Positions 7,909 to 51,408 are shown, counted from the stretch's first letter. The stretch: DNA of 64,000 nucleotides from Solirubrobacterales bacterium (GCA_038233375.1 JBBSMC010000005.1:2296-66295); one strand, 5' to 3'. Numbers and translations are program-made. Notes: a model not told the origin generated them from the letters alone.

Positions 7909-8021
7909 ACCACGAGGGCCCGTCGGCGCTGAAGCTCATCGCCGCCGTCGCGCTGCTCGTGGCGGTCACGATCCTGTTCTGGTTCGGCGTCGGCTACGGC
8001 CTCGGCCGCCTCTTCCTCTGA
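7905..8021 (+). CDS. Possible small membrane protein (38 aa)
   Basis: The GTG start overlaps the folC stop (GTGA). It encodes one hydrophobic helix (LKLIAAVALLVAVTILFWFGVGYGL). From memory, many actinobacteria carry a small membrane protein between folC and ndk. Confidence 0.3.
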   Translation: MNHEGPSALKLIAAVALLVAVTILFWFGVGYGLGRLFL

Positions 8022-8068
8022 CGACCGCCTACCACGTCATCCCTCGCGCCGGATAAGCTGCCTCGATC

Positions 8069-8545
8069 GTGCTTGCCGTCTTTGGCATCAACAGCGATGG
8101 GCTGAACCTTGCGGTCAACATGCTCATCCTGTTTCTCGTCGTCATCTACCTGGCGCTCGTGTACTGGACGTACATGGACGCGATCAGGCGGATCGAGGAC
8201 CCGATGCTCGTGATCTGCGCCACGGTCGCATCGCTGTTTCCGTTCGTCGGGACGATCCTCTACGTGATCGTCCGTCCTCCGGAGTACCTCGAGGACATCC
8301 AAGAGCGCGAGCTGGAGATGCAGGCCGCCGAGGCGCGATTGCACGAGGCGAACTACATGCTCTGCCCGCATTGCGACTACGAGGTCAAGGAAGACTTCCT
8401 ACGCTGTCCCAACTGCGTGCGCAAGCTGCGCGACCCGTGCCGCAACTGCGGCCGGCCGCTGGACCCGACCTGGAAGCTCTGCCCGTATTGCGAGGCAGAG
8501 CCGGGCGACGTCGGACGACAGCCGCGGCTGCGCTCCGAAGCCTGA
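8069..8545 (+). CDS. Membrane protein with a PLD-N-like two-helix anchor and a double zinc ribbon
   Basis: Two N-terminal TM helices followed by CPHC...CPNC...CRNC...CPYC (four CxxC pairs). Confidence 0.6.
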   Translation: MLAVFGINSDGLNLAVNMLILFLVVIYLALVYWTYMDAIRRIEDPMLVICATVASLFPFVGTILYVIVRPPEYLEDIQERELEMQAAEARLHEANYMLCPHCDYEVKEDFLRCPNCVRKLRDPCRNCGRPLDPTWKLCPYCEAEPGDVGRQPRLRSEA

Positions 8546-31912: not shown

Positions 31913-32781
31913 CACGGACCGTCTTTCTCGGCACTTCGGACTTCGCCGCGGCCGTCCTCACCCGCCTCGCCGACAGCCCGCACCGGCCACAGCTCGTCGT
32001 CACGCGCCCGGATCGCCCGGCGGGCCGCGGGCGCAGGCTCTCGGCACCGCCGGTCGCGCAGGCGGCCCGCGCGCTGGAATTCCCGCTCCTGCAGCCCGAG
32101 AAGGTCAACGACGAGGACGCCCGCGCGCAGATCGCCGCCGCGGCGCCCGACGCCGTCATCGTCTGCGCGTTCGGCGCGCTCATCCGCGAGCCGCTGCTGT
32201 CGGACTTCGAGATGCTCAACGTCCATCCGTCGCTGCTGCCGCGCTGGCGCGGCGCGGCGCCGGCAGAGCGGGCGATCATGGCCGGCGACGAGGAGACCGG
32301 GGTCTGCATCATGCGGTTGACCGCCGGCCTGGACAGCGGGCCCGTCTGCCTGATGGGCCGCGAGCCGATTGCCCCTGACGACACGTACGGCACGCTGACG
32401 CCGCGCCTGCAGCAGGTCGGCGCCGACCTGCTGCTGCGTGTGCTCGACGAGCGGCCCGCCTGCGCCGAGCAGACCGAGGAGGGCGTCACGTACGCCGACA
32501 AGATCTGCCCCGCCGACCGCACGCTCGACCCGGCCGCAACCGCGGCGGTCAACGACCGCGTCCTGCGCGCGCTGACGCCGCACATCGGCGCCCGCGTGAC
32601 GCTCGCCGACGGCTCGTTCCTCGGCGTCCTGCGCGCAGCCGTGCGCGACCCGGACGCGGCGGGCCGGCTGCGCGCCGACGGCGACCGGCTGCTGCTCGGC
32701 GGCCTGGAGCTGCTCGCTGTCCAGCCCGCCGGCGGCCGGCCGATGGACGTGGCGTCGTACCTGCGCGGCCGCAGCGTGTGA
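31909..32781 (+). CDS. fmt: Methionyl-tRNA formyltransferase
   Basis: Its GTG overlaps the def stop. Contains NVHPSLLPRWRGAAP. Confidence 0.9.
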   Translation: MTRTVFLGTSDFAAAVLTRLADSPHRPQLVVTRPDRPAGRGRRLSAPPVAQAARALEFPLLQPEKVNDEDARAQIAAAAPDAVIVCAFGALIREPLLSDFEMLNVHPSLLPRWRGAAPAERAIMAGDEETGVCIMRLTAGLDSGPVCLMGREPIAPDDTYGTLTPRLQQVGADLLLRVLDERPACAEQTEEGVTYADKICPADRTLDPAATAAVNDRVLRALTPHIGARVTLADGSFLGVLRAAVRDPDAAGRLRADGDRLLLGGLELLAVQPAGGRPMDVASYLRGRSV

Positions 32782-32877
32782 CAGTCCCCGCGCTGTCTGC
32801 GCACGATCTGTGGCGCCGCCGTGCCGTTCCGGCGAGGGGCAGCGCTGGCCATGGGTCTGTGCGGCAGTGTCCAGCAC

Positions 32878-33247
32878 GGCATCAGCCAGCTGCACCAGGC
32901 TGCGCAGGCGGGTCGGGGGGCGAGCACGCGGCGACCTGTCTGCTGTTCGGGCCCAAGCACGCCGCGCGGCTGCGCGCGCTGGAGCGCGACACAGACGGCT
33001 TCGAGCTCGCCCAACTCGACCTCGAGCTGCGCGGCGAGGGCGAGATCGCCGGGACGCGCCAGTCGGGCCTCGCGCAGTTGCGGTTCGCGCAGCTGCCCGC
33101 GGACGAGCCTCTGGCGGAGGCGGCGAAGGTCTACGCCGAGTCGCTGCTGGGGACCGACCCGGAGTTGGTCGGGCCTGAGCATGCCTTGCTGGGGGATGCG
33201 CTGGCGCAGGCGTACGGGGCGGGCGAGCTGGCGCGCTGCCGGTGTGA
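32878..33247 (+). pseudogene. Displaced copy of the 3' end of recG (last ~120 codons), frame-disrupted
   Basis: Aligns by eye with 55529..55900 at roughly 90% identity (LLFGPKHAARLRALER...GEGEIAGTRQSG...AEAAKVYAESLL). There is no helicase core upstream. A 1-nt deletion near the end removes the stop codon from frame. Confidence 0.75.
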
Positions 33248-33428
33248 GCGTGAGCGTGATGTGCGCTTCGCGTCACCGCGCGAGGCGATCGCGTCGTCGA
33301 AAGGCATCTCTGAGGGTGTGAGCTCGTGTGGGTGCCGGCCGTTGTGCCGGGGCCGGCGTTCGGATGGGGAGCGTGGCGCGTTGATGTTCACAGCGAACAG
33401 AAACCCGCCGCGCTCCTGGTGGAGGGGC
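33248..33428 (+). repeat. Partial copy (5' half) of the structured element that follows the genuine recG
   Basis: Continues the duplication and aligns with 55901..56081. The 3' arm of the inverted repeat is absent here. Confidence 0.7.
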
Positions 33429-33670
33429 GTGCGGACGGGCGCGATGGCACGAAATGAGGCGGAAAGGGAGATGGGGAGGGTGCATCGGTACCCGCGCGAC
33501 GACGACTACGACGGCTACGAGATGGATCGTCGATGACGGTTCCGACGATCGCGCGTAGATTGGAGGAGGGCGCGACGCGGGCGCGGGCCATCTCAGCCTC
33601 GCCGGCACGACTGCCGAGCGCAAGCCCGCCACCGATCGGAGATCCGCCCCCGGGCGCGCCGCGGCGCCAG

Positions 33671-33811: not shown

Positions 33812-35076
33812 GCGAGGTCACACCCGCCCGGCGGGTCGCGTTCTCCGTCGTCCGGCGCGTCTTCGAGCAGGGCGCCTACGCCGACCGCGCGCTGCACGGG
33901 GAGGCGAAGGGCCTGGATCCGCGCGAGCGTTCGCTGGCGATGGCGCTCGCGTACGGAACCGTCCAGCGCAAGCTCACGCTGGACCACTTCATCGAGCAGC
34001 TGGCGCGGCCGGCGAACGAGCTCGACCCGCCGACGCTCGCGGCCCTGCGGCTCGGGCTCTACCAGCTCGTCTTCCTCGACGGGGTCGCGGCGCACGCCGC
34101 GGTCGGCGAGAGCGTCGAGCTGGCCAAGGGCGGGCGCGGCGGCGGGCACAAGCTCGTCAACGCGGTGCTGCGGCGGGCCGCCCGCGGCGAGCTGCCGCCA
34201 TTGCCGGCGGACGACACGCCCGCCGGTGCGGCGATCGCCCACTCCCATCCACGGTGGCTCGTCGAGCAGTGGTGGGAGCAGTTCGGGCCGGGCGAGACGC
34301 GGGCGCTGCTGCGCGCCGGCAACGCGCGCGGCGAGCTGGCGCTGCGCGTGAACACGCTGCGCGCCACGCCCGCCGAGGTCAGCGACGCGCTGAGAGAGCT
34401 GGCACCTGCCGTCGAGGCACGCCCGGCAGGCGACGAGCTGCCCGAGGGGCTCGTCGTCGGGGGCGCGTTCGACGCCCACGGCCACCCGCTCTACGCCGAG
34501 GGCGCCTACACCGCGCAGTCGCGCGGCGCCATGCTCGTCGGGCGCGCGGTCGATCCGCAACCCGGCGAGCGCGTGCTCGACCTGTGCGCCGCGCCCGGCG
34601 GCAAGACGACCCACCTCGCCGCGCTGATGGGCGACAGCGGCGAGATCGTCGCGGTCGAGCGCCACGCCGGCCGCGCCCGCGCCCTGCAGCGCACGTGCGA
34701 GCGGATGGGCGCCACGTCGGTGCGCGTCGAACACGCCGACGCCGCCCGCTTCACCACCGAGACGGCATTCGACAAGGCGCTCGTCGACCCACCCTGCAGC
34801 GGTCTCGGCACGCTGCAGGGCCATCCCGACCTGCGCTGGCGCATGGACCCCGAATCGATCGAGCGCCTCGCCCGCGGGCAGGCGAAGATCCTCGAGGCGG
34901 CGCGCGCGGCGGTCCGGCCCGGCGGCACGATCGTCTACGCGACGTGCACGCTCTCGCGGGCGGAGAACGAGGCGGTCGTGGCCGCGTCCGGGCTGTCACT
35001 AGACTCCGAACGCCTCGTGCTGCCCCACCGCGATCGCACCGACGGCTTCTACATCGCCCGCCTGAGCTGCCCATGA
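33808..35076 (+). CDS. rsmB: 16S rRNA (cytosine967-C5)-methyltransferase
   Basis: NusB-like N-terminal domain. SAM site DLCAAPGGKT and the catalytic DPPCSG and TCT/S region. Confidence 0.9.
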   Translation: MSEVTPARRVAFSVVRRVFEQGAYADRALHGEAKGLDPRERSLAMALAYGTVQRKLTLDHFIEQLARPANELDPPTLAALRLGLYQLVFLDGVAAHAAVGESVELAKGGRGGGHKLVNAVLRRAARGELPPLPADDTPAGAAIAHSHPRWLVEQWWEQFGPGETRALLRAGNARGELALRVNTLRATPAEVSDALRELAPAVEARPAGDELPEGLVVGGAFDAHGHPLYAEGAYTAQSRGAMLVGRAVDPQPGERVLDLCAAPGGKTTHLAALMGDSGEIVAVERHAGRARALQRTCERMGATSVRVEHADAARFTTETAFDKALVDPPCSGLGTLQGHPDLRWRMDPESIERLARGQAKILEAARAAVRPGGTIVYATCTLSRAENEAVVAASGLSLDSERLVLPHRDRTDGFYIARLSCP

Positions 35077-35291
35077 CCGACGAGATCGGCATGGCCTGCC
35101 CGAACTGCCGCGAGCCCTGGCTGCGGCCCGCCAACCTGCCCGGCCGCTACCGCTGCGTGTACTGCCTGCATCGCTTCGAGCTGTGCTCGCTGTGCCCCGA
35201 CTGCGGCGAGCATTCTACGATCGTGCGCATGTCCAAGACCGCGATCCTGTCCTGCAACGCCTGCTCAGCCTCGATGCTGCGCGAGATCTAG
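35073..35291 (+). CDS. Small zinc-ribbon protein (72 aa, four CxxC pairs)
   Basis: Its ATG overlaps the rsmB stop. Contains CPNC...CVYC...CPDC...CNAC. Confidence 0.5.
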   Translation: MTDEIGMACPNCREPWLRPANLPGRYRCVYCLHRFELCSLCPDCGEHSTIVRMSKTAILSCNACSASMLREI

Positions 35292-35996: not shown

Positions 35997-37139
35997 GTGC
36001 GGGCGATTCGCAGAGCGCTGCTCCCGGCCCTGGCGGTGCTGCTCGCGGCGGCACCGGCCGCGACGGCCGGGCCGGGCATCACCTTCTACCCGAAGACCGG
36101 TCCGGTCCTCACGCTGACGGGCGGGCAGGTCGCCTCGCTCGCCAACACGGCGGCCAGGACGTACACCCTGCCGCCCGACGCCGAGCAGGCGGGCAGGAAG
36201 GTGACCCTGCGGGGGGTCTCGATCGGGGCTCTGGTCGCTCGCTCCGGGCAGGGCGCCCAGCGCGTCCAGGTCGTCAAGCGCAACGGCGGCTCCGTCGGCG
36301 TCTCACCGGCGAGCTTCTCGACCGCGATCATCTCCGACGACGGCGTCACGACGCGCTACATCCGCTCCTCGGGCGGCGTGGTGGTCGACTACATCGAGAC
36401 CAGCGACATTCCCCTGGAGGTGTCCGTCGACGGCGGCGACCTCGTGGTTCGGGCGAAGGCGAACCGCAAGAAGGTGAAGGTCGGGGAATCGGTCACGTTC
36501 GAGGCCACCGTGTCGGGCGGAAAGCCGGGCGTCGCCTACAGCTTCGAGTGGGACTTCGGCGAGGGCCCGGTGAACGGCAAGCGGGTCAGCTACAGCCCCG
36601 AGCTGGCGGGCGTGCTGTTCGCCCAGGTCGAGGTCCGCGACCCTGATCCGGGCTGCACGCTGCGCTGCGGCGGCACCGAGCAGGTGCAGGTCGACGTCGG
36701 CGACGCGCCCGAGCAGCCGGACGACCCGGCTGCGGGCGGCGCGAACGGCGCCCCCGGCGGCGCGGGCTCCGCCGGCGGGACCGGCGGCGGCGGCCAGGGC
36801 GGTACCGGTACCGGGAGCGGATCGGGGACGGGCTTCAGCAGCGATGCCGAGGGCCTCGCCGCCGCCGAGCGCGTCGCCGGCATCAAGCCGAGCACGCCGC
36901 CCGAGCCGAATAGGGGGTTCGGCACGACGATCTCCGGCGTGCTCATCAACGACACCGGCTCGACCGCTCGCAAGCTGCCCGGCGGCAAGCCCGCTGGCGC
37001 GGAGGAGGGCGTCCGCGCGGTGCGCGGCGGCGACACTCCCGGCGGCTTCCCGCTGGGCCTCGGCGGGCTCCTCGCGCTGGGCTTCATGTGGGTCGGGGCG
37101 CTTCGCGAGCGCCGAGGCGTCAGACTGCCCGTCGCATGA
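35997..37139 (+). CDS. Secreted, membrane-anchored protein with a PKD-like domain, a Gly-rich linker and a C-terminal TM helix
   Basis: GTG start followed by signal peptide RALLPALAVLLAAAPAATA. PKD-type segment VGESVTFEATVSGG...YSFEWDFGEG. C-terminus reads PGGFPLGLGGLLALGFMWVGALRERRG. Confidence 0.6.
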   Translation: MRAIRRALLPALAVLLAAAPAATAGPGITFYPKTGPVLTLTGGQVASLANTAARTYTLPPDAEQAGRKVTLRGVSIGALVARSGQGAQRVQVVKRNGGSVGVSPASFSTAIISDDGVTTRYIRSSGGVVVDYIETSDIPLEVSVDGGDLVVRAKANRKKVKVGESVTFEATVSGGKPGVAYSFEWDFGEGPVNGKRVSYSPELAGVLFAQVEVRDPDPGCTLRCGGTEQVQVDVGDAPEQPDDPAAGGANGAPGGAGSAGGTGGGGQGGTGTGSGSGTGFSSDAEGLAAAERVAGIKPSTPPEPNRGFGTTISGVLINDTGSTARKLPGGKPAGAEEGVRAVRGGDTPGGFPLGLGGLLALGFMWVGALRERRGVRLPVA

Positions 37140-37786
37140 GCGCCGTCATCGCCGTCTCCGGCATCGAAGAGGTCCTGTTCGAGCTTGCCAACGCGATGCG
37201 CGTCCCGGTCTTCGTGGCCGCGATCGCTGCGCTGGCGTTCGTGCTGTTCGACCTCGGCGCGTTCTTCGTGGAGCTCAACCGCCGCCGCCGCCAGGGCCGT
37301 CGCGAGCAGGTGCAGGAGGCGACGGCGAGCGCGCGCCATGCGCTCGCGGTCAATGACACGGGCGCCGCCCAGCACGCACTCATGCCGCTGGCCTCCAGCG
37401 CGCAGATGGCCGACACGCTCGCGACCCTCGTTAACGGCCACGACCAGCCGGGCATCCACGACCGCCGCGCGAAGGCGCTGGCGGACTTCGACCTCACCTC
37501 CCTGCGCAAGCTCGAGCGCAGCCGCCTGCTCGTGCGCTTCGGCCCCGCGCTGGGCCTGATGGGCACGCTGATCCCGCTCTCGCCGGCGCTCGAGGGCCTC
37601 GCCGAGGGTAACGTCGCCCAGCTCTCTGAGAACCTGCGCGCGGCGTTCAGCGTGACCGTGATCGGCCTGCTCATCGGCGCGGTCGCGTTCTCGATCTCGC
37701 TCGTGCGCGACCGCATGTACGCCCAGGACCTCTCCGACCTGGAGTACGTCGTCACGGCGCTCGATCCGTCCGAACCGGGTCGATGA
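37136..37786 (+). CDS. MotA/TolQ/ExbB-family proton channel protein
   Basis: Its ATG overlaps the upstream stop. One N-terminal TM helix plus a C-terminal TM pair, with GPALGLMGTLIPL, typical of ExbB/TolQ. Confidence 0.7.
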   Translation: MSAVIAVSGIEEVLFELANAMRVPVFVAAIAALAFVLFDLGAFFVELNRRRRQGRREQVQEATASARHALAVNDTGAAQHALMPLASSAQMADTLATLVNGHDQPGIHDRRAKALADFDLTSLRKLERSRLLVRFGPALGLMGTLIPLSPALEGLAEGNVAQLSENLRAAFSVTVIGLLIGAVAFSISLVRDRMYAQDLSDLEYVVTALDPSEPGR

Positions 37787-38154
37787 AGACGCCGTCGCGC
37801 AGCCGCATCACGCCACACGCCAGCCGGCGCGGCGACCGCGGCGGTGACCCGCTCGATGGCCTCGTCAACCTCTTCGACCTCGGCATCGTGCTCGCGGTCG
37901 CGTTCCTGGTCGCCGCGCTGCAGTCCGTCAACCTCTCGGACCTGCTGACGCAGGAGAACGTCACCGTGCTGCGCACGGAGGCCGACAGCCAGACGCTGAT
38001 CGTCAAGGAGGGCGAGTCGATCAAGACCGTCAAGCTCAGCAAGCAGACCGTGACCGGCTCCGGCCGCCGGGTCGGCGAGGTCTTCCGGCTGCAGGACGGG
38101 CGCCTGGTCTACGTCACGGGCGAGGGCGGCAAGGTCGTCGACCCGACGCCGTGA
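37783..38154 (+). CDS. DUF2149-like, ExbD/TolR-like single-pass membrane protein
   Basis: Its ATG overlaps the upstream stop. One N-terminal TM helix with an Asp at its entrance (LVNLFDLGIVLAVAFLVAAL), followed by a small beta-rich domain. Confidence 0.5.
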   Translation: MKTPSRSRITPHASRRGDRGGDPLDGLVNLFDLGIVLAVAFLVAALQSVNLSDLLTQENVTVLRTEADSQTLIVKEGESIKTVKLSKQTVTGSGRRVGEVFRLQDGRLVYVTGEGGKVVDPTP

Positions 38155-48278: not shown

Positions 48279-48656
48279 ATGCCCGCTGCCGAGGCAGAGG
48301 AGATGATCGCGCTGGCGCTCGTGTCCGTCGTGCACGTGATCGGTGGCCTCATGCTCGTGTGGGCCCTGCTCGACGCCGACCAGCGCTCGGGCTGGCGCAA
48401 CCTTCCCCGCCCGCCCCGCGGCGGCGGGGACGACGGACCGCCGCCCCCGCAGCCACCACGGCCGCCCGACGCACACACCCCCGCCGGACCGCCGCCCGCG
48501 CCGCTACCGCTGTGCGATGGCGCTCCCAGCCGCGTGCGCCTGCGTGAGCCGCTGCCGCTGGCCGGCGGCTATCCGCGGCCGGCGCGCAGGCCCGAGCACG
48601 AGCCCCAGCCGCAGCGCGCCCCCGTGCCGGGGCGCCAGCGCCAGCGCCGCCCCTGA
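48279..48656 (+). CDS. Possible small membrane protein with a Pro-rich tail
   Basis: One TM helix (IALALVSVVHVIGGLMLVWALL). Its 3' end overlaps the convergent GH10 gene, which makes the call doubtful. Confidence 0.25.
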   Translation: MPAAEAEEMIALALVSVVHVIGGLMLVWALLDADQRSGWRNLPRPPRGGGDDGPPPPQPPRPPDAHTPAGPPPAPLPLCDGAPSRVRLREPLPLAGGYPRPARRPEHEPQPQRAPVPGRQRQRRP

Positions 48657-49816
48657 CCCGCGGGCGCGGCGGCCTTCCTGCCGCGCGGCGCGAACGCGCT
48701 GCGCACGGCCGCAAAGGCCGGCTTCGGCTTGTAGGCCGTGTCGAAGAGCAACGGCGCCTCGCCGGAGCCGATCCAGGACAGGCGGTCGGTGATGCCCCAG
48801 GTCGTGAAGCGCTTGCAGGCCTTGACGGCGTTGCAGGCTCGCGCGGCGGCGCCGTAGGCCTCCGCCTGGCGGGTCAGCCGGTCCGAGCCGGTCACGTTGA
48901 GCAGCGAGGTCCCCACGTCCATCTCGGTGACCTGGACCTCCAGCCCCATCGCGGCGAAGCGGCGCATCGTCCACTCGAGCGTCTTCTGGTCGTGGAAGCC
49001 GAGGATGTGCGAGTGCATCTGCAAGCCGATGCCGTCCAGCGGCACGTTGCGCTTCTGCAGGTCGCGGACGAGCTCGACGAGCCCTTCGAGCTTGCGGCCC
49101 GGGCCTTCGACGCCGTATTCGTTGATGAAGAGCTTCGCCTTCGGATCGGCAGCGCGGGCGGATCGCAGCGCCAGCTCGACGTAGTCGGGGCCGATGAAGC
49201 GCCGCCAGACGCTCGGCGCGGGCCCGCCGTCGGCGGCCATCGGCTCGTTGACCACGTCCCACTCGGCGACATCGCCCGCGAAGTGGCGCATGACGGTGCT
49301 GATGTGCGTCCGCATGACCGACAGCAGCTCGTCGCGGCGCCAGCCGGTCAGCAAGGTCGCGCCCTCCGAGAGTCCCCTGCCGAGCGCACCGGGCAGGCGC
49401 GGCAGGACGATCGGCGGCAGGCGCAGGCCGAGCTCATCGGTGGCCCCGTGGTCGACCAGCCAGAGCGGCAGCGACAGGCCCCAGACGAGCGCGTGGCCGT
49501 GGATCGCCTTGTCGTTGCGGCGGGCGAAGTCGACGAGCTCGTCGGCCGCGGTGAAGTCGAACCGCCCGCGGTGCGGCTGCAGCGCCGCCATCTTCATCCC
49601 GTTCTCGGCCGTCAGGGAGTCGAACTCGCGCAGGAACGTGGCGCGGTAGCGCGTGTCCTCGCGCAGTGCGGAGAGGCGGACGGCGCTGCCCAGCGGAACC
49701 GAGCGCAGCATGTCCTTGGCGGGCGCGGATTGGGCGAGCTGCGGCGTGGCGAGCAGCGCGAGCAGCGCGAGCATGGCTAGCAAGCCGACCCGTCGTAGCA
49801 CCCCGCGCGCCCCCAT
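48569..49816 (-). CDS. Secreted GH10 endo-1,4-beta-xylanase-like protein
   Basis: Signal peptide, then TAENGMKM, HGHALVW, FINEYG (acid/base) and VTEMDV (nucleophile). Confidence 0.85.
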   Translation of the reverse strand: MGARGVLRRVGLLAMLALLALLATPQLAQSAPAKDMLRSVPLGSAVRLSALREDTRYRATFLREFDSLTAENGMKMAALQPHRGRFDFTAADELVDFARRNDKAIHGHALVWGLSLPLWLVDHGATDELGLRLPPIVLPRLPGALGRGLSEGATLLTGWRRDELLSVMRTHISTVMRHFAGDVAEWDVVNEPMAADGGPAPSVWRRFIGPDYVELALRSARAADPKAKLFINEYGVEGPGRKLEGLVELVRDLQKRNVPLDGIGLQMHSHILGFHDQKTLEWTMRRFAAMGLEVQVTEMDVGTSLLNVTGSDRLTRQAEAYGAAARACNAVKACKRFTTWGITDRLSWIGSGEAPLLFDTAYKPKPAFAAVRSAFAPRGRKAAAPAGQGRRWRWRPGTGARCGWGSCSGLRAGRG

Positions 49817-49842
49817 CGGACAGCGAAATCTAGCGCGTTGGA

Positions 49843-51408
49843 CTACTCATTGTCGCCCTTCTTGGCCTTCGCCTTCTTGCCGTTGCCGGTGGTTTCGCCG
49901 TTGACCTGCGCCTCGGCCTTGTCGAGGGCGGCCTGGATGATCTCGGGGCGATCGTCGCTGCGCTGCAGGCGCTCCTGCAGAAGCGGGATCGCGGCTGCCG
50001 GCTGGCCCGTGGCGATCAGCGCCTCGGCGAGGTTGAACAGCGCGAAGTGGTAGTTGACGTTCGAGCGCGCGCCGGCCTTGCGAAATCCCTCGACGGAGCG
50101 CTGCAGGAGCGCAACGGCGCCCGCGGGGTCGCCGCCCTTGAGGAGGTCGTAGCCCTGGTCGTTGAGCTGGGAGGGATTCCCGGTGCTCGCGCTCGCGGCG
50201 GGCGGGGGCGGTGGCGAGGGCGAGTCGGCGGGCTGCTCGGCGTCGGCTGCGGCTTGCTGGGGCGTCGTCGTCGAGGAGGACGGCGACTTCTTCGGCGTCG
50301 TCGTGGCGGATGATTCGCCCCCACCCGCCCCGCCGCCGGCGAGCGCGACCGCGACGATCACGGCGGCGATGGTCGCGGCGGCGACGCCGACCGGCAGCCA
50401 GCGCGCGGGCTTGCGACGTCCCTGGCCGGGCGCTGGAGCGGCGAGCGAGGACGGGCGGCGGGCCGCCGGAGGGGTGTGCGCAGGCGCGGCGGCCGCTGCG
50501 CCTGCCGCGGCGGCCGGAACGACGGGGGGCATCGCCCGCGTCGAGTCGACGCGCCGCGTCGGCGCTGTCGTCCCGAGCGCCCGCTCGATCTCGTCGACGA
50601 GCCCGACGGCCGTCTGGGGACGATCGCGCGGATCCTTGGCGAGCCCGCGGCCGAGAACCTCGTCGATGGCGACCGGGAGCTCCGGGGCGGCGTCGGTCGC
50701 CTTGTCGGGCTGATCCTCGACATGCTGGCGGGCCTGGGCGGTGACCGGCCCGCCGGCGAAGGGCCGCGCCCCGGTGAGCAGCTCGTAGGCGACCACGGCG
50801 AGCGCGTAGCGGTCGCTCGCGGCGGTCGCCGGCTGGCCGAGCGCCTGCTCGGGCGACAGGTAGGCGGCGGTGCCGAGCACCTGGCCGGTCTGCGTCATGT
50901 GCGTGTCGTCGGCGAGGCGGGCGATCCCGAAGTCGCCGACGGCGAGACGATCCTGGGCGTCGATGAGCAGGTTCGCCGGCTTGACGTCACGGTGCACGAT
51001 GCCTGCGCCATGGGCGGCGTCGAGGGCCAGCGCGGTCTCGCGCAGCCAGCGCAACGTCGTGTCGCGCGGCACGGGTCCGCCGCCGTCCTTCGCCGCCTTG
51101 AGCCGATCGGCGAGTGTGCCCCCGCTGAAGTACTCCATGACGATGTAGGTGTCGTCACCGTGCTCGCCGGTGTCGTAGATCGTGGCGATGTGCGGATGCT
51201 CGGAGACGCGCGCGGCGGTGCGCGCCTCGCGCTGGAAGCGCGCGCGGGCCCCGGCGTCGGCGGCGTATTGAGCGCCTAGCACCTTCACCGCGACCACCCG
51301 TCCGAGCAAGGTGTCCTCGACCTCCCAGACGGACGCCATGCCGCCGCTGGCGATGTGGCGTGTGACGCGATAGCGCTCGGGCAGCTCGATTCCTGAAGCG
51401 AGCGGCAT
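49843..51408 (-). CDS. Ser/Thr protein kinase with one TM helix and an extracytoplasmic TPR-like domain
   Basis: [21 protein letters not shown], a Pro/Ala-rich linker, TM helix [21 protein letters not shown], and a helical-repeat C-terminus. Confidence 0.9.

Follow-up and report, generated by a model that had tools for sequence, protein, structure and literature searches.

What would a proton motor of the MotA/ExbB type do in a cell without an outer membrane? Such motors are understood as carrying energy to the outer membrane or to the flagellum. The question is raised by three adjoining genes in a 64-kb stretch of DNA from a Solirubrobacterales bacterium (GCA_038233375.1, JBBSMC010000005.1:2296-66295), the whole of which we call the window and in which all coordinates below are counted unless a locus identifier precedes them. 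In gene order, the trio encodes an exported protein with a PKD domain (P1), a MotA/ExbB-family channel protein (P2), and a DUF2149 protein (P3). A first-pass annotation of this DNA had read them as a motor driven by the proton motive force that energizes a surface protein, an arrangement that it could not assign to any described system. The latter statement was too strong: judged by their sequences, P2 and P3 are a pair of a known kind, HmuU and HmuV of the hmuYRSTUV heme operon (PMC11681262, PMC10434189). With the families of P2 and P3 already known, what is new is the single-pass PKD protein as third gene, the context of a Tup-like importer in related loci, and the monoderm host. In cells without an outer membrane, the trio probably serves as a proton-powered aid to uptake.

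Three translationally coupled genes and their products

All three genes are real and intact. In a window of ca. 72% G+C, the G+C content at third codon positions (GC3; 0.93 for P1, 0.93 for P2, and 0.97 for P3) lies far above that at second positions (GC2; 0.44-0.59 across the trio), which marks the three open reading frames (ORFs) as real coding frames, and the two ATGA stop/start overlaps by which the first-pass annotation had chained them are exact in the sequence (Table 1). The closest matches to P3 and P1, at 95-97% identity, come from metagenome-assembled genomes (MAGs) of Solirubrobacteraceae (class Thermoleophilia, Actinomycetota), so that the host is a monoderm actinobacterium, as had been guessed.

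P2 exceeds the Pfam cutoff for MotA_ExbB (PF01618; 32.6 bits against 22.9, E = 7.8e-8, aa 96-187), and its homologs carry PF01618 matches as well; together with the Pfam match of P3 given below, this confirms both domain assignments of the first-pass annotation. NCBIfam yielded only sub-threshold matches to MotA and PomA, and a P2 profile run against the sequences of the Protein Data Bank (PDB) found only flagellar MotA and PomA, weakly (E = 0.03-0.1). Hydrophobic segments were seen in a hydropathy scan at aa 25-43 and 172-190, while the second transmembrane (TM) segment (TM2, ca. aa 133-155) stays below the threshold of that scan and was placed by alignment to PF01618 and MotA/PomA. The resulting layout of TM1 at aa 25-43, the sequence RRRRQGRRE, a cytoplasmic stretch of ca. 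85 residues, and a TM2-TM3 hairpin fits the N-out three-TM topology of ExbB and TolQ, with which the basic flanking residues agree. Hydropathy and alignment thereby bear out, on the level of sequence, the topology that had been claimed for the middle protein along with its GLMGT motif, which occupies aa 140-144. Core columns including G140-L-M-G-T144 and T174 do not vary among 16 sequences, some of them from homologs linked to CobN genes, and the invariance of the core GP.LGLMGTLIP..PAL...AF..TV.GL in actinobacterial and CobN-linked homologs alike places all of these in one subfamily. Pairwise ratios of nonsynonymous to synonymous substitution rates (dN/dS) are 0.30-0.52 for P2 and 0.31-0.50 for P3, compared to 0.28-0.45 for the nearby rsmB gene, all of them inflated because GC3 values above 0.9 compress dS; on these figures, P2 and P3 appear to evolve like rsmB and under purifying selection. 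A Zorya-like or other MotAB-based defense system was also considered and rejected, given that P1, P2, and P3 match neither ZorA/ZorB nor any other PADLOC defense model at E-values up to 0.01.

P3 aligns to positions 1-90 of the 92 in the DUF2149 profile (PF09919), scoring 82.1 bits where the cutoff is 27.1, and is 75-97% identical among the best 120 clusters, which extend across the Solirubrobacteraceae and all carry the domain. The DUF2149 family as a whole is small, comprising 384 clusters (at 50% identity) out of 1.84 billion representative proteins. In P3, the basic N-terminus, a single TM helix bearing Asp32 (D32) in the motif NLFD (aa 29-32; D32 codon at 37876-37878), and ca. 70 residues outside the membrane fit an ExbD-like single pass with the N-terminus inside, again in agreement with the basic flanking residues. 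Across 51 diverse DUF2149 proteins, conservation amounts to at least 90% for D32 and for the DPL..(N)LF motif ahead of it. The analogy that had been drawn between this residue and the TM Asp of ExbD, TolR, and MotB thus stands as far as the single pass and the conservation of D32 are concerned, whereas homology was not detected beyond the TM helix. When the P3 family was compared by hhalign to ExbD and TolR of Escherichia coli (reference sequences entered by hand), the TM helix alone was aligned, with D32 opposite ExbD D25 and TolR D23, at a probability of 12-13%. Pfam and NCBIfam returned no match of P3 to ExbD (PF02472) at E-values up to 1, Pfam none to TolR, MotB, or OmpA-family models, and the DUF2149 profile found only chance matches and no ExbD, TolR, or MotB chain among the PDB sequences at E-values up to 10. 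The ectodomain was modeled by AlphaFold2 (AF2) as five strands without helices (aa 60-112), at a low confidence (predicted local distance difference test, pLDDT, of 64), and Foldseek found nothing at E < 0.06 with this low-confidence model. On the profile searches, membership of P3 in the ExbD/TolR/MotB family was rejected, and “ExbD-like” denotes an analogy of topology, Asp residue, and kind of partner, not family membership. The likeness to ExbB and ExbD on which the first-pass annotation had staked its reading accordingly differs between the two proteins in profile searches, with P2 passing the MotA_ExbB cutoff and P3 not matching an ExbD profile.

P1 is an exported protein with a PKD-like domain, a Gly-rich linker, and a C-terminal anchor, an earlier description on which Pfam, hydropathy, and AF2 now agree (Table 1). 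Its PKD domain (PF00801; 28.4 bits against a cutoff of 23.5, aa 154-217) superimposes on the PKD domains of ColG in Foldseek (TM-score 0.8, E = 2e-5), and the AF2 model combines well-predicted residues 31-230 (block-mean pLDDT 84-95) with disorder over aa 245-353 and a terminal helix at aa 356-372. All of the 93 P1 homologs that carry a source name come from Solirubrobacteraceae or Actinomycetota. The protein diverges much faster than P3, down to 29% identity, yet the order P1-P2-P3 is retained even there, which together with the ATGA coupling argues that the trio is a single unit. In an alignment of 36 homologs, the mature N-terminus GPG is conserved, and the invariant or near-invariant columns cluster toward the C-terminus (FG.TISGVLI.D.G ... 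KLP.G.PAG ... GALRERRGV(R/K)LR(V/L)A), with a nearly invariant tail after the TM helix that reads RERRGVRLPVA in the window protein. Identity to the latter among the 18 most distant homologs amounts to 32% in the N-terminal domain, 40% in the PKD domain, and 39% in the spacer, compared to 56% in the membrane-proximal segment and 59% in the TM helix and tail, making the C-terminal 75 residues the best-conserved part of P1 (56-59% against 32-40% for the head). With a dN/dS of 0.6-1.1 over the whole protein (rsmB, 0.28-0.45), these values picture P1 as a predicted fast-evolving, exposed head on a conserved anchor.

Most P1 orthologs have a TonB-like run rich in (Glu/Lys)-Pro in the spacer (e.g., PKPEPKPPPPPPKP), of which the window protein has a Gly-rich version; no TonB, TonB_C, or TolA domain was matched by P1 in Pfam. 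For its N-terminal domain, there was no match in Pfam, NCBIfam, or the PDB sequences, including searches with a profile of 23 sequences. Foldseek aligned the head (aa 25-236; 36069-36704) to the molybdenum cofactor and immunoglobulin (Ig)-like dimerization domains of chicken sulfite oxidase (E = 3e-5, ca. 330 columns, root mean square deviation 13 Å), an unconfirmed lead without sequence-profile support that is curious beside the tungsten/molybdenum-type transporter of related loci.

Table 1. The trio and its parts, in window coordinates.
Feature	Position	Strand	Basis
P1 gene, exported PKD-domain protein with C-terminal membrane anchor	35997..37139	+	380 aa, GTG start; Pfam PKD
P1 signal peptide, aa 1-24, cleavage after ATA	35997..36068	+	hydrophobic aa 7-25; model helix aa 2-17
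P1 N-terminal alpha/beta domain, aa 25-147	36069..36437	+	block-mean pLDDT 88-95 for aa 31-150
P1 PKD/Ig-like domain, aa 148-236	36438..36704	+	Pfam PKD; invariant W185, C220, C224
P1 Gly/Ala/Pro-rich spacer, aa 237-306	36705..36914	+	pLDDT <50; 21 Gly, 12 Ala, 8 Pro per 70 residues
P1 membrane-proximal motif, aa 307-350, FGTTISGVLINDTG...KLPGGKPAGA	36915..37046	+	56% identity in distant homologs
P1 C-terminal TM helix and basic cytoplasmic tail, aa 351-380, ...GALRERRGVRLPVA, with stop codon	37047..37139	+	hydrophobic aa 351-369; model helix 356-372; 59% identity in distant homologs
ATGA stop/start overlap, P1/P2	37136..37139	+	direct sequence reading
P2 gene, MotA/ExbB-family three-TM protein, HmuU-type subfamily	37136..37786	+	216 aa; PF01618
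P2 conserved channel core, aa 130-192: R130, GPALGLMGT144LIPLSPAL, AFSVT174VIGLLIG	37523..37711	+	conservation across 89 sequences
ATGA stop/start overlap, P2/P3	37783..37786	+	direct sequence reading
P3 gene, DUF2149 single-pass protein, HmuV-type	37783..38154	+	123 aa; PF09919
P3 TM helix, aa 23-48, nearly invariant DPLxGxxNLFD	37849..37926	+	family alignments; AF2 helix 23-48; hydropathy 27-45

Genomic partners of the module

Outside the Actinomycetota, the pair is known from the hmuYRSTUV heme operon of Porphyromonas, Prevotella, and Bacteroides, in which HmuV is the DUF2149 protein and HmuU its MotA/ExbB partner and which also encodes a CobN-like dechelatase, HmuS, and a membrane protein, HmuT (PMC11681262, PMC10434189, PMC12094164, PMC12583661). 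The roles of HmuT, HmuU, and HmuV are called unclear in the literature (PMC12094164). For HmuS of Bacteroides, anchoring through a helix at each terminus has been predicted (PMC12583661). We inspected the gene context of five distant DUF2149 proteins that are 31-36% identical to P3. On contigs of Planctomycetota and from metagenomes, genes for MotA_ExbB and DUF2149 proteins follow one for a DUF2162 protein or another multi-TM protein of ca. 240 aa and adjoin a CobN-Mg_chel gene, while one distant DUF2149 locus adjoins a radical S-adenosylmethionine gene. The CobN-like protein encoded directly upstream of the MotA_ExbB start in locus L090 (L090:1-1584) ends in ...GRWMAALLGVTAVLALALGAWRRVGTSR, a TM helix with a basic tail, and that of a second locus (L088:3862-8307) has TM segments at both its N- and its C-terminus. 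Cobalt and chelatase genes are the usual partner of the MotA_ExbB-DUF2149 pair outside the Actinomycetota. In a further locus (L089:64-5643), a DUF2162-MotA_ExbB-DUF2149 set lies divergent from cbiMNQO, encoding a cobalt transporter of the energy-coupling factor type, with a TP_methylase gene close by, a layout that links pairs of the P2-P3 type to cobalt or corrinoid metabolism. Since P1 on the one hand and the CobN-like proteins and HmuS on the other are held by a C-terminal TM helix, these few cases suggest a common logic for the clients of the motor, with the MotA/ExbB-DUF2149 unit acting on C-terminally anchored extracytoplasmic proteins.

With these Hmu-type modules (hmuYRSTUV and DUF2162-MotA_ExbB-DUF2149), the trio shares the combination of PF01618 and PF09919, the near-invariant motifs GP.LGLMGTLIP..PAL of P2 and DPL..(N)LFD of P3, a set of three genes headed by one for an uncharacterized membrane protein, and, as the putative client, an exported protein held by a TM anchor at its C-terminus (PMC12583661). 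It differs from them in that its first gene encodes a single-pass PKD protein instead of multi-TM DUF2162 or HmuT, in the absence of CobN, a TonB-dependent receptor, and a hemophore, in its monoderm host, and in having a TupABC-like importer of the ATP-binding cassette (ABC) class as its recurrent actinobacterial partner.

The actinobacterial loci were obtained by scanning a single genome for each GTDB species, which returned at least 500 loci, of which the best 80 were analyzed. An alignment of the 51 diverse DUF2149 sequences was too variable for locus retrieval, and the closer set of 16 query sequences that was used instead biases the 80 loci to Thermoleophilia and a few Microbacteriaceae; they are the closest relatives of the trio, and their context fractions, counted from phmmer and hmmsearch matches on six-frame ORFs, are not a census. 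All 80 belong to Actinomycetota, namely Thermoleophilia and the Microbacteriaceae genera Galbitalea and Frondihabitans. A PKD-protein match or a C-terminal remnant of one, mostly ending at the start of P2, was found in 72 of the 80, and several of the others are truncated contigs. In Actinomycetota, the P2-P3 pair thus almost always comes with a P1-family protein, and this association, with the C-terminal anchor as its best-conserved part, upholds the earlier view of the surface protein as an integral third component. The P1-family gene lies elsewhere or after P3 in nine of the 80 loci. A C-terminal module made of an xxGxLL strand, the TM helix, and G-A-x-(R/E)-E-R-R is common to the PKD proteins of all kinds of loci distinguished below, and a hidden Markov model of the P1 N-terminal domain matches the PKD proteins of other locus types at E-values of 1e-6 to 1e-19, so that P1 is one family across all contexts.

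In 26 loci, a PBP_like_2 binding protein is encoded upstream and one or more BPD_transp_1 permeases and an ABC ATPase downstream; 21 of them have a recognized PKD-protein gene that follows the one for the binding protein and precedes P2. These Tup-linked loci include cultured monoderms (Frondihabitans, Galbitalea, Conexibacter, and Solirubrobacter soli), and their genes lie close together, overlapping or separated by 1-34 nt (e.g., Conexibacter, L046). Nine further loci have ABC genes only downstream, several of them on truncated contigs. Among NCBIfam models, the flanking genes match TupA, TupB, and ABC_perm1 best, at 72-101 bits for the binding protein against TupA (cutoff 400) and, for the permease, 110-122 bits against TupB (cutoff 320) and 131-166 bits against the ABC_perm1 subfamily (cutoff 100). 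By these scores, which fall far below the TupA and TupB equivalog cutoffs, the transporter would be an oxyanion-type importer that is closest to TupABC. It departs from TupABC in its binding proteins, which are 540-860 aa long, have extra C-terminal Ig-like (Big_13) domains, and start with a plain signal peptide that lacks a lipobox Cys (genes at L046:3996-5792 and L051:4344-5969 and the one ending at 5951 of L071). Binding proteins of monoderm bacteria must be tethered, and an untethered TupA-like protein is thus unexpected. We know of no canonical Tup operon that contains MotA/ExbB, DUF2149, or PKD genes, and no description of a PKD-MotA/ExbB-DUF2149 module or of ExbB-like genes within actinobacterial ABC importer operons was found in the literature. 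The position of the module inside TupABC-like importer operons points to a role in uptake.

The context of the window itself, rpe-P1-P2-P3, recurs in 27 of the 80 loci (one truncated contig and one MacB locus without rpe included), 21 of which have the flippase cluster after the trio. In three long contigs, the whole window order is kept, from priA-def-fmt-rsmB-(Zn ribbon)-rpe-P1-P2-P3 to the convergent flippase cluster and the rib genes. Upstream of P1, ten of the 27 encode a MacB/LolD-type ATPase and a duplicated FtsX/MacB_PCD permease. This second class of ABC system, seen in Solirubrobacteraceae, has permeases of 850-970 aa and is inserted between rpe and P1 in nine of the ten loci (L020, L021, L028, L030, L032-L034, L036, and L066, e.g., L030:2784-6091, with a weaker permease match in L019).

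At least two MAGs carry two DUF2149 loci. Annotation of the second-copy loci L061 and L083 revealed no informative partner. L083 has two tandem P3-like ORFs by phmmer (L083:7337-7657 and 7962-8300), of which Pfam recognizes DUF2149 only in the second; the other could be a duplicate that has diverged or a spurious match. Where the genes flanking actinobacterial loci were scanned against Pfam, neither DUF2162 nor CobN was met. The first-pass annotation had held that a regular neighbor such as a cobalt/cobalamin chelatase-transport locus would explain the role of the trio and thereby refute its reading. Neighbors of this kind do exist, with CobN or cbiMNQO beside the pair in other phyla and the Tup-like importer in 26 of the 80 actinobacterial loci, the latter telling in spirit against that reading since it points to uptake, but the window copy has no such partner, and the mechanism is not explained by them.

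A proposed machine and its alternatives

In outline, the trio would work like the Ton and Tol systems, while its proteins fall outside ExbD/TolR, MotB, and TonB. Common to both are a three-TM MotA/ExbB protein, a single-pass partner with a TM Asp, a single-pass spacer protein with a distal globular domain, translationally coupled genes, and a link to nutrient uptake. The trio differs in that P1 is anchored C-terminally after Sec export, whereas TonB and TolA are anchored N-terminally, in that P1 has no TonB_C or TolA domain, in a P3 that is not PF02472 and has an ectodomain modeled (at low confidence) as small and all-beta, in the absence of an outer membrane, a TonB-dependent transporter, and Pal, and in a P2 that matches MotA/PomA better than ExbB/TolQ in PDB searches. 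The flagellar stators MotA-MotB and PomA-PomB, whose MotA and PomA are the best sequence match of P2 among solved structures, likewise pair the channel protein with a partner that has an Asp in its single TM helix; they are set apart by four TM segments in place of the three of P2, by the plug and OmpA-like peptidoglycan-binding domain that P3 lacks, and by flagellar genes, of which the trio has none.

With middling confidence, we propose that the trio forms a membrane complex powered by the proton motive force in which a motor pulls a wall-spanning, inverted TonB-like partner for nutrient capture. What is shown is that the genes are real, to which families they belong, how they are conserved, and with which genes they are associated; that P2 and P3 form a proton-conducting complex of the MotA/ExbB superfamily, with P1 docked as a third subunit through its C-terminal module, is inferred but in our view well supported. 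By analogy with ExbB-ExbD, TolQ-TolR, and MotA-MotB, a ring of P2 around P3 helices bearing the protonatable Asp32 would be the ion-conducting core, and what is known of the superfamily (PMC9389320, PMC12215075) would predict a rotary motor of 5:2 stoichiometry that passes force to P1. The latter would be the output subunit, exported by Sec, with the N-terminal and PKD domains as a head on a Gly/Pro-rich spacer of 70-110 residues that may reach into the wall, and would be fixed to the motor by the membrane-proximal strand, the C-terminal TM helix, and the basic tail. In a cell without an outer membrane, P1 would thus play the part of TonB or TolA in inverted topology: its head in the wall may bind the untethered binding protein or the substrate, and proton flow would drive a conformational cycle with delivery or release of the cargo at the permease. 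That the C-terminal module is the best-conserved part of P1 and recurs in all locus types argues for P1 as a docked partner, and from the ABC importer and chelatase contexts we infer that the work done serves nutrient acquisition. As no transporter lies beside the window trio, this copy would either have its client encoded elsewhere, as the MAGs with two DUF2149 loci allow, or act by itself.

Several points weigh against this proposal. The similarity of P2 to solved stators is weak (E ~0.04), no relation of P3 to ExbD, TolR, or MotB was found in sequence or fold beyond the TM helix, and the P3 model is of low confidence (pLDDT 64). There is no experimental work on HmuU and HmuV (PMC12094164) or on the trio. 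Only P2 and P3, and no P1, were detected in nine of the 80 loci, and the ten loci that have a MacB-type ABC system beside the trio instead show the partner to be variable. A small oxyanion importer has no obvious need of mechanical energy. Finally, neither an ABC transporter nor CobN nor another client of the window trio was found within the 64-kb window, and the synteny of this copy with rpe and the glycan cluster may be incidental.

That glycan cluster suggests a different role. The trio of the window and those of 21 related loci adjoin convergent genes for a Polysacc_synt flippase, a methyltransferase, a family 2 glycosyltransferase (GT2), and two PMT_2-type GT-C proteins, and PKD domains often bind glycans, as would suit a Tol-like machine for envelope maintenance or glycan handling that acts on the wall or on the surface glycan made by this cluster. 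That motors of the ExbB type are able to maintain the envelope is known from Tol-Pal (PMC12204202). We nonetheless think this role unlikely, because the cluster lies on the other strand, is absent from the rpe-type loci L013, L014, and L022 as well as from all Tup-linked (type-B) and type-C loci, and is associated with the trio in a single family whose synteny is strong otherwise, so that the association may be inherited gene order; P3 also has no peptidoglycan-binding OmpA-like domain in Pfam.

The nearly invariant cytoplasmic tail of P1, suited to an intracellular contact, raises the possibility that P2 and P3 are a gated ion channel or sensor and P1 a ligand-binding receptor that gates ions or signals through this tail. 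No rotation or force is evidenced here, and P3 has no wall-binding domain that a stator could use as an anchor. This reading appears improbable to us all the same, given that all characterized members of the MotA/ExbB superfamily are energy transducers (PMC9389320), that the tail has only ca. 11 residues, and that no regulator or kinase is consistently adjacent in the loci. The placement of P1 amid transporter genes better suits a structural subunit than a sensor.

In GldL/GldM and AglRQS of gliding bacteria, a MotA/ExbB-type motor is coupled to single-pass proteins that have Ig-like domains, and the fast-evolving, exposed head of P1 with its Ig-like domain and long spacer might likewise be an adhesin moved by the motor for surface motility or attachment. 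For such a device from this motor class (PMC9389320) we see little chance, since there are no gliding, pilus, or track genes in the neighborhood, P1, P2, and P3 have no match to GldL/M or Agl proteins in Pfam or NCBIfam, and the recurrent genomic partner is an ABC importer and not a set of motility genes. That the trio is a vestigial, non-functional Ton remnant in a monoderm lineage, in line with a survey that calls incomplete actinobacterial Ton systems likely non-functional (PMC12204202), is hardly credible in view of three intact ORFs with GC3 above 0.9, a dN/dS of P2 and P3 comparable to that of rsmB, the 75-97% identity of P3 across the family, the at least 500 loci in species-representative genomes with conserved order and translational coupling, and a pair that belongs to a DUF2149 subfamily and not to ExbBD proper.

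The window copy and the wider meaning of the module

The window trio is an orphan copy between rpe and the convergent glycan cluster. Upstream of it follow, in order, proB, proA, nadD, rsfS, a tRNA gene, priA, def, fmt, rsmB, a Zn-ribbon ORF of 72 aa, and rpe. Downstream of the trio, the opposite strand carries the genes for the flippase, the methyltransferase, and GT2, beyond which lie the two PMT_2-type GT-C genes and ribD-E-BA. The earlier statement that TonB, Tol-Pal, flagellar, and gliding genes are missing nearby holds, with none within ca. 12 kb on either side, and neither TonB (TonB_C) nor a TonB-dependent outer-membrane transporter is encoded among the ca. 25 genes at 24.6-53.6 kb. 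No CobN-Mg_chel protein or DUF2162-type membrane protein was found among the genes annotated around the trio, and genes for a TupA-like binding protein, a TupB-like permease, and their ATPase are absent from the entire window. A search for Rfam riboswitches (e.g., Moco or B12) had no hit in the window or in nine Tup-linked loci, and a scan for promoters and terminators gave nothing exceeding chance expectation. The 3' ends of P3 and of the convergent flippase gene overlap by 46 bp (38109-38154), and no terminator-like site was found in this overlap.

Three other features of the window are recorded here in their own right. The Cys-rich 72-aa Zn-ribbon ORF between rsmB and rpe (35073-35291, + strand) starts in an ATGA overlap with the rsmB stop codon, weakly matches PF07191 (Zn_ribbon_6), and keeps its position in related contigs. 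Between fmt and rsmB, a 252-aa ORF (32778-33536, + strand) with RecG C-terminal domain 3 as its sole Pfam match and a GC3 of 0.81, below that of its neighbors, could be what is left of recG or a gene that evolves fast. Two genes beyond ribD-E-BA, for a glycoside hydrolase family 10 xylanase and a Ser/Thr protein kinase (48569-51408, - strand), are ordinary and bear no relation to the trio.

For the wider biology, Gram-positive homologs of these motors have been dismissed as probably non-functional (PMC12204202), whereas the module described here is conserved in at least 500 actinobacterial species genomes. A conserved and selected module with a putative output subunit that resembles an inverted TonB argues that such motors do work in cells without an outer membrane. 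Only tentatively would we go further and suggest that monoderm Actinomycetota have a functional TonB-like force system in which a proton motor pulls a C-terminally anchored, wall-spanning PKD protein and so powers the capture or release of substrate for an ABC importer with a binding protein that lacks a lipid anchor. More generally, MotA/ExbB-DUF2149 units may supply energy outside the cytoplasm to exported proteins anchored at the C-terminus, among them P1, HmuS, and CobN-like chelatases, in place of intracellular ATP-driven partners. The repeated insertion of the module in an ABC importer operon yields the concrete, testable hypothesis that protons assist the capture of nutrients across a thick wall, and several of the hosts can be cultivated. 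The finding also ties the uncharacterized HmuTUV proteins in the heme operon of abundant gut Bacteroidota to what may be a wider principle, a motor joined to a C-terminally anchored exported protein.

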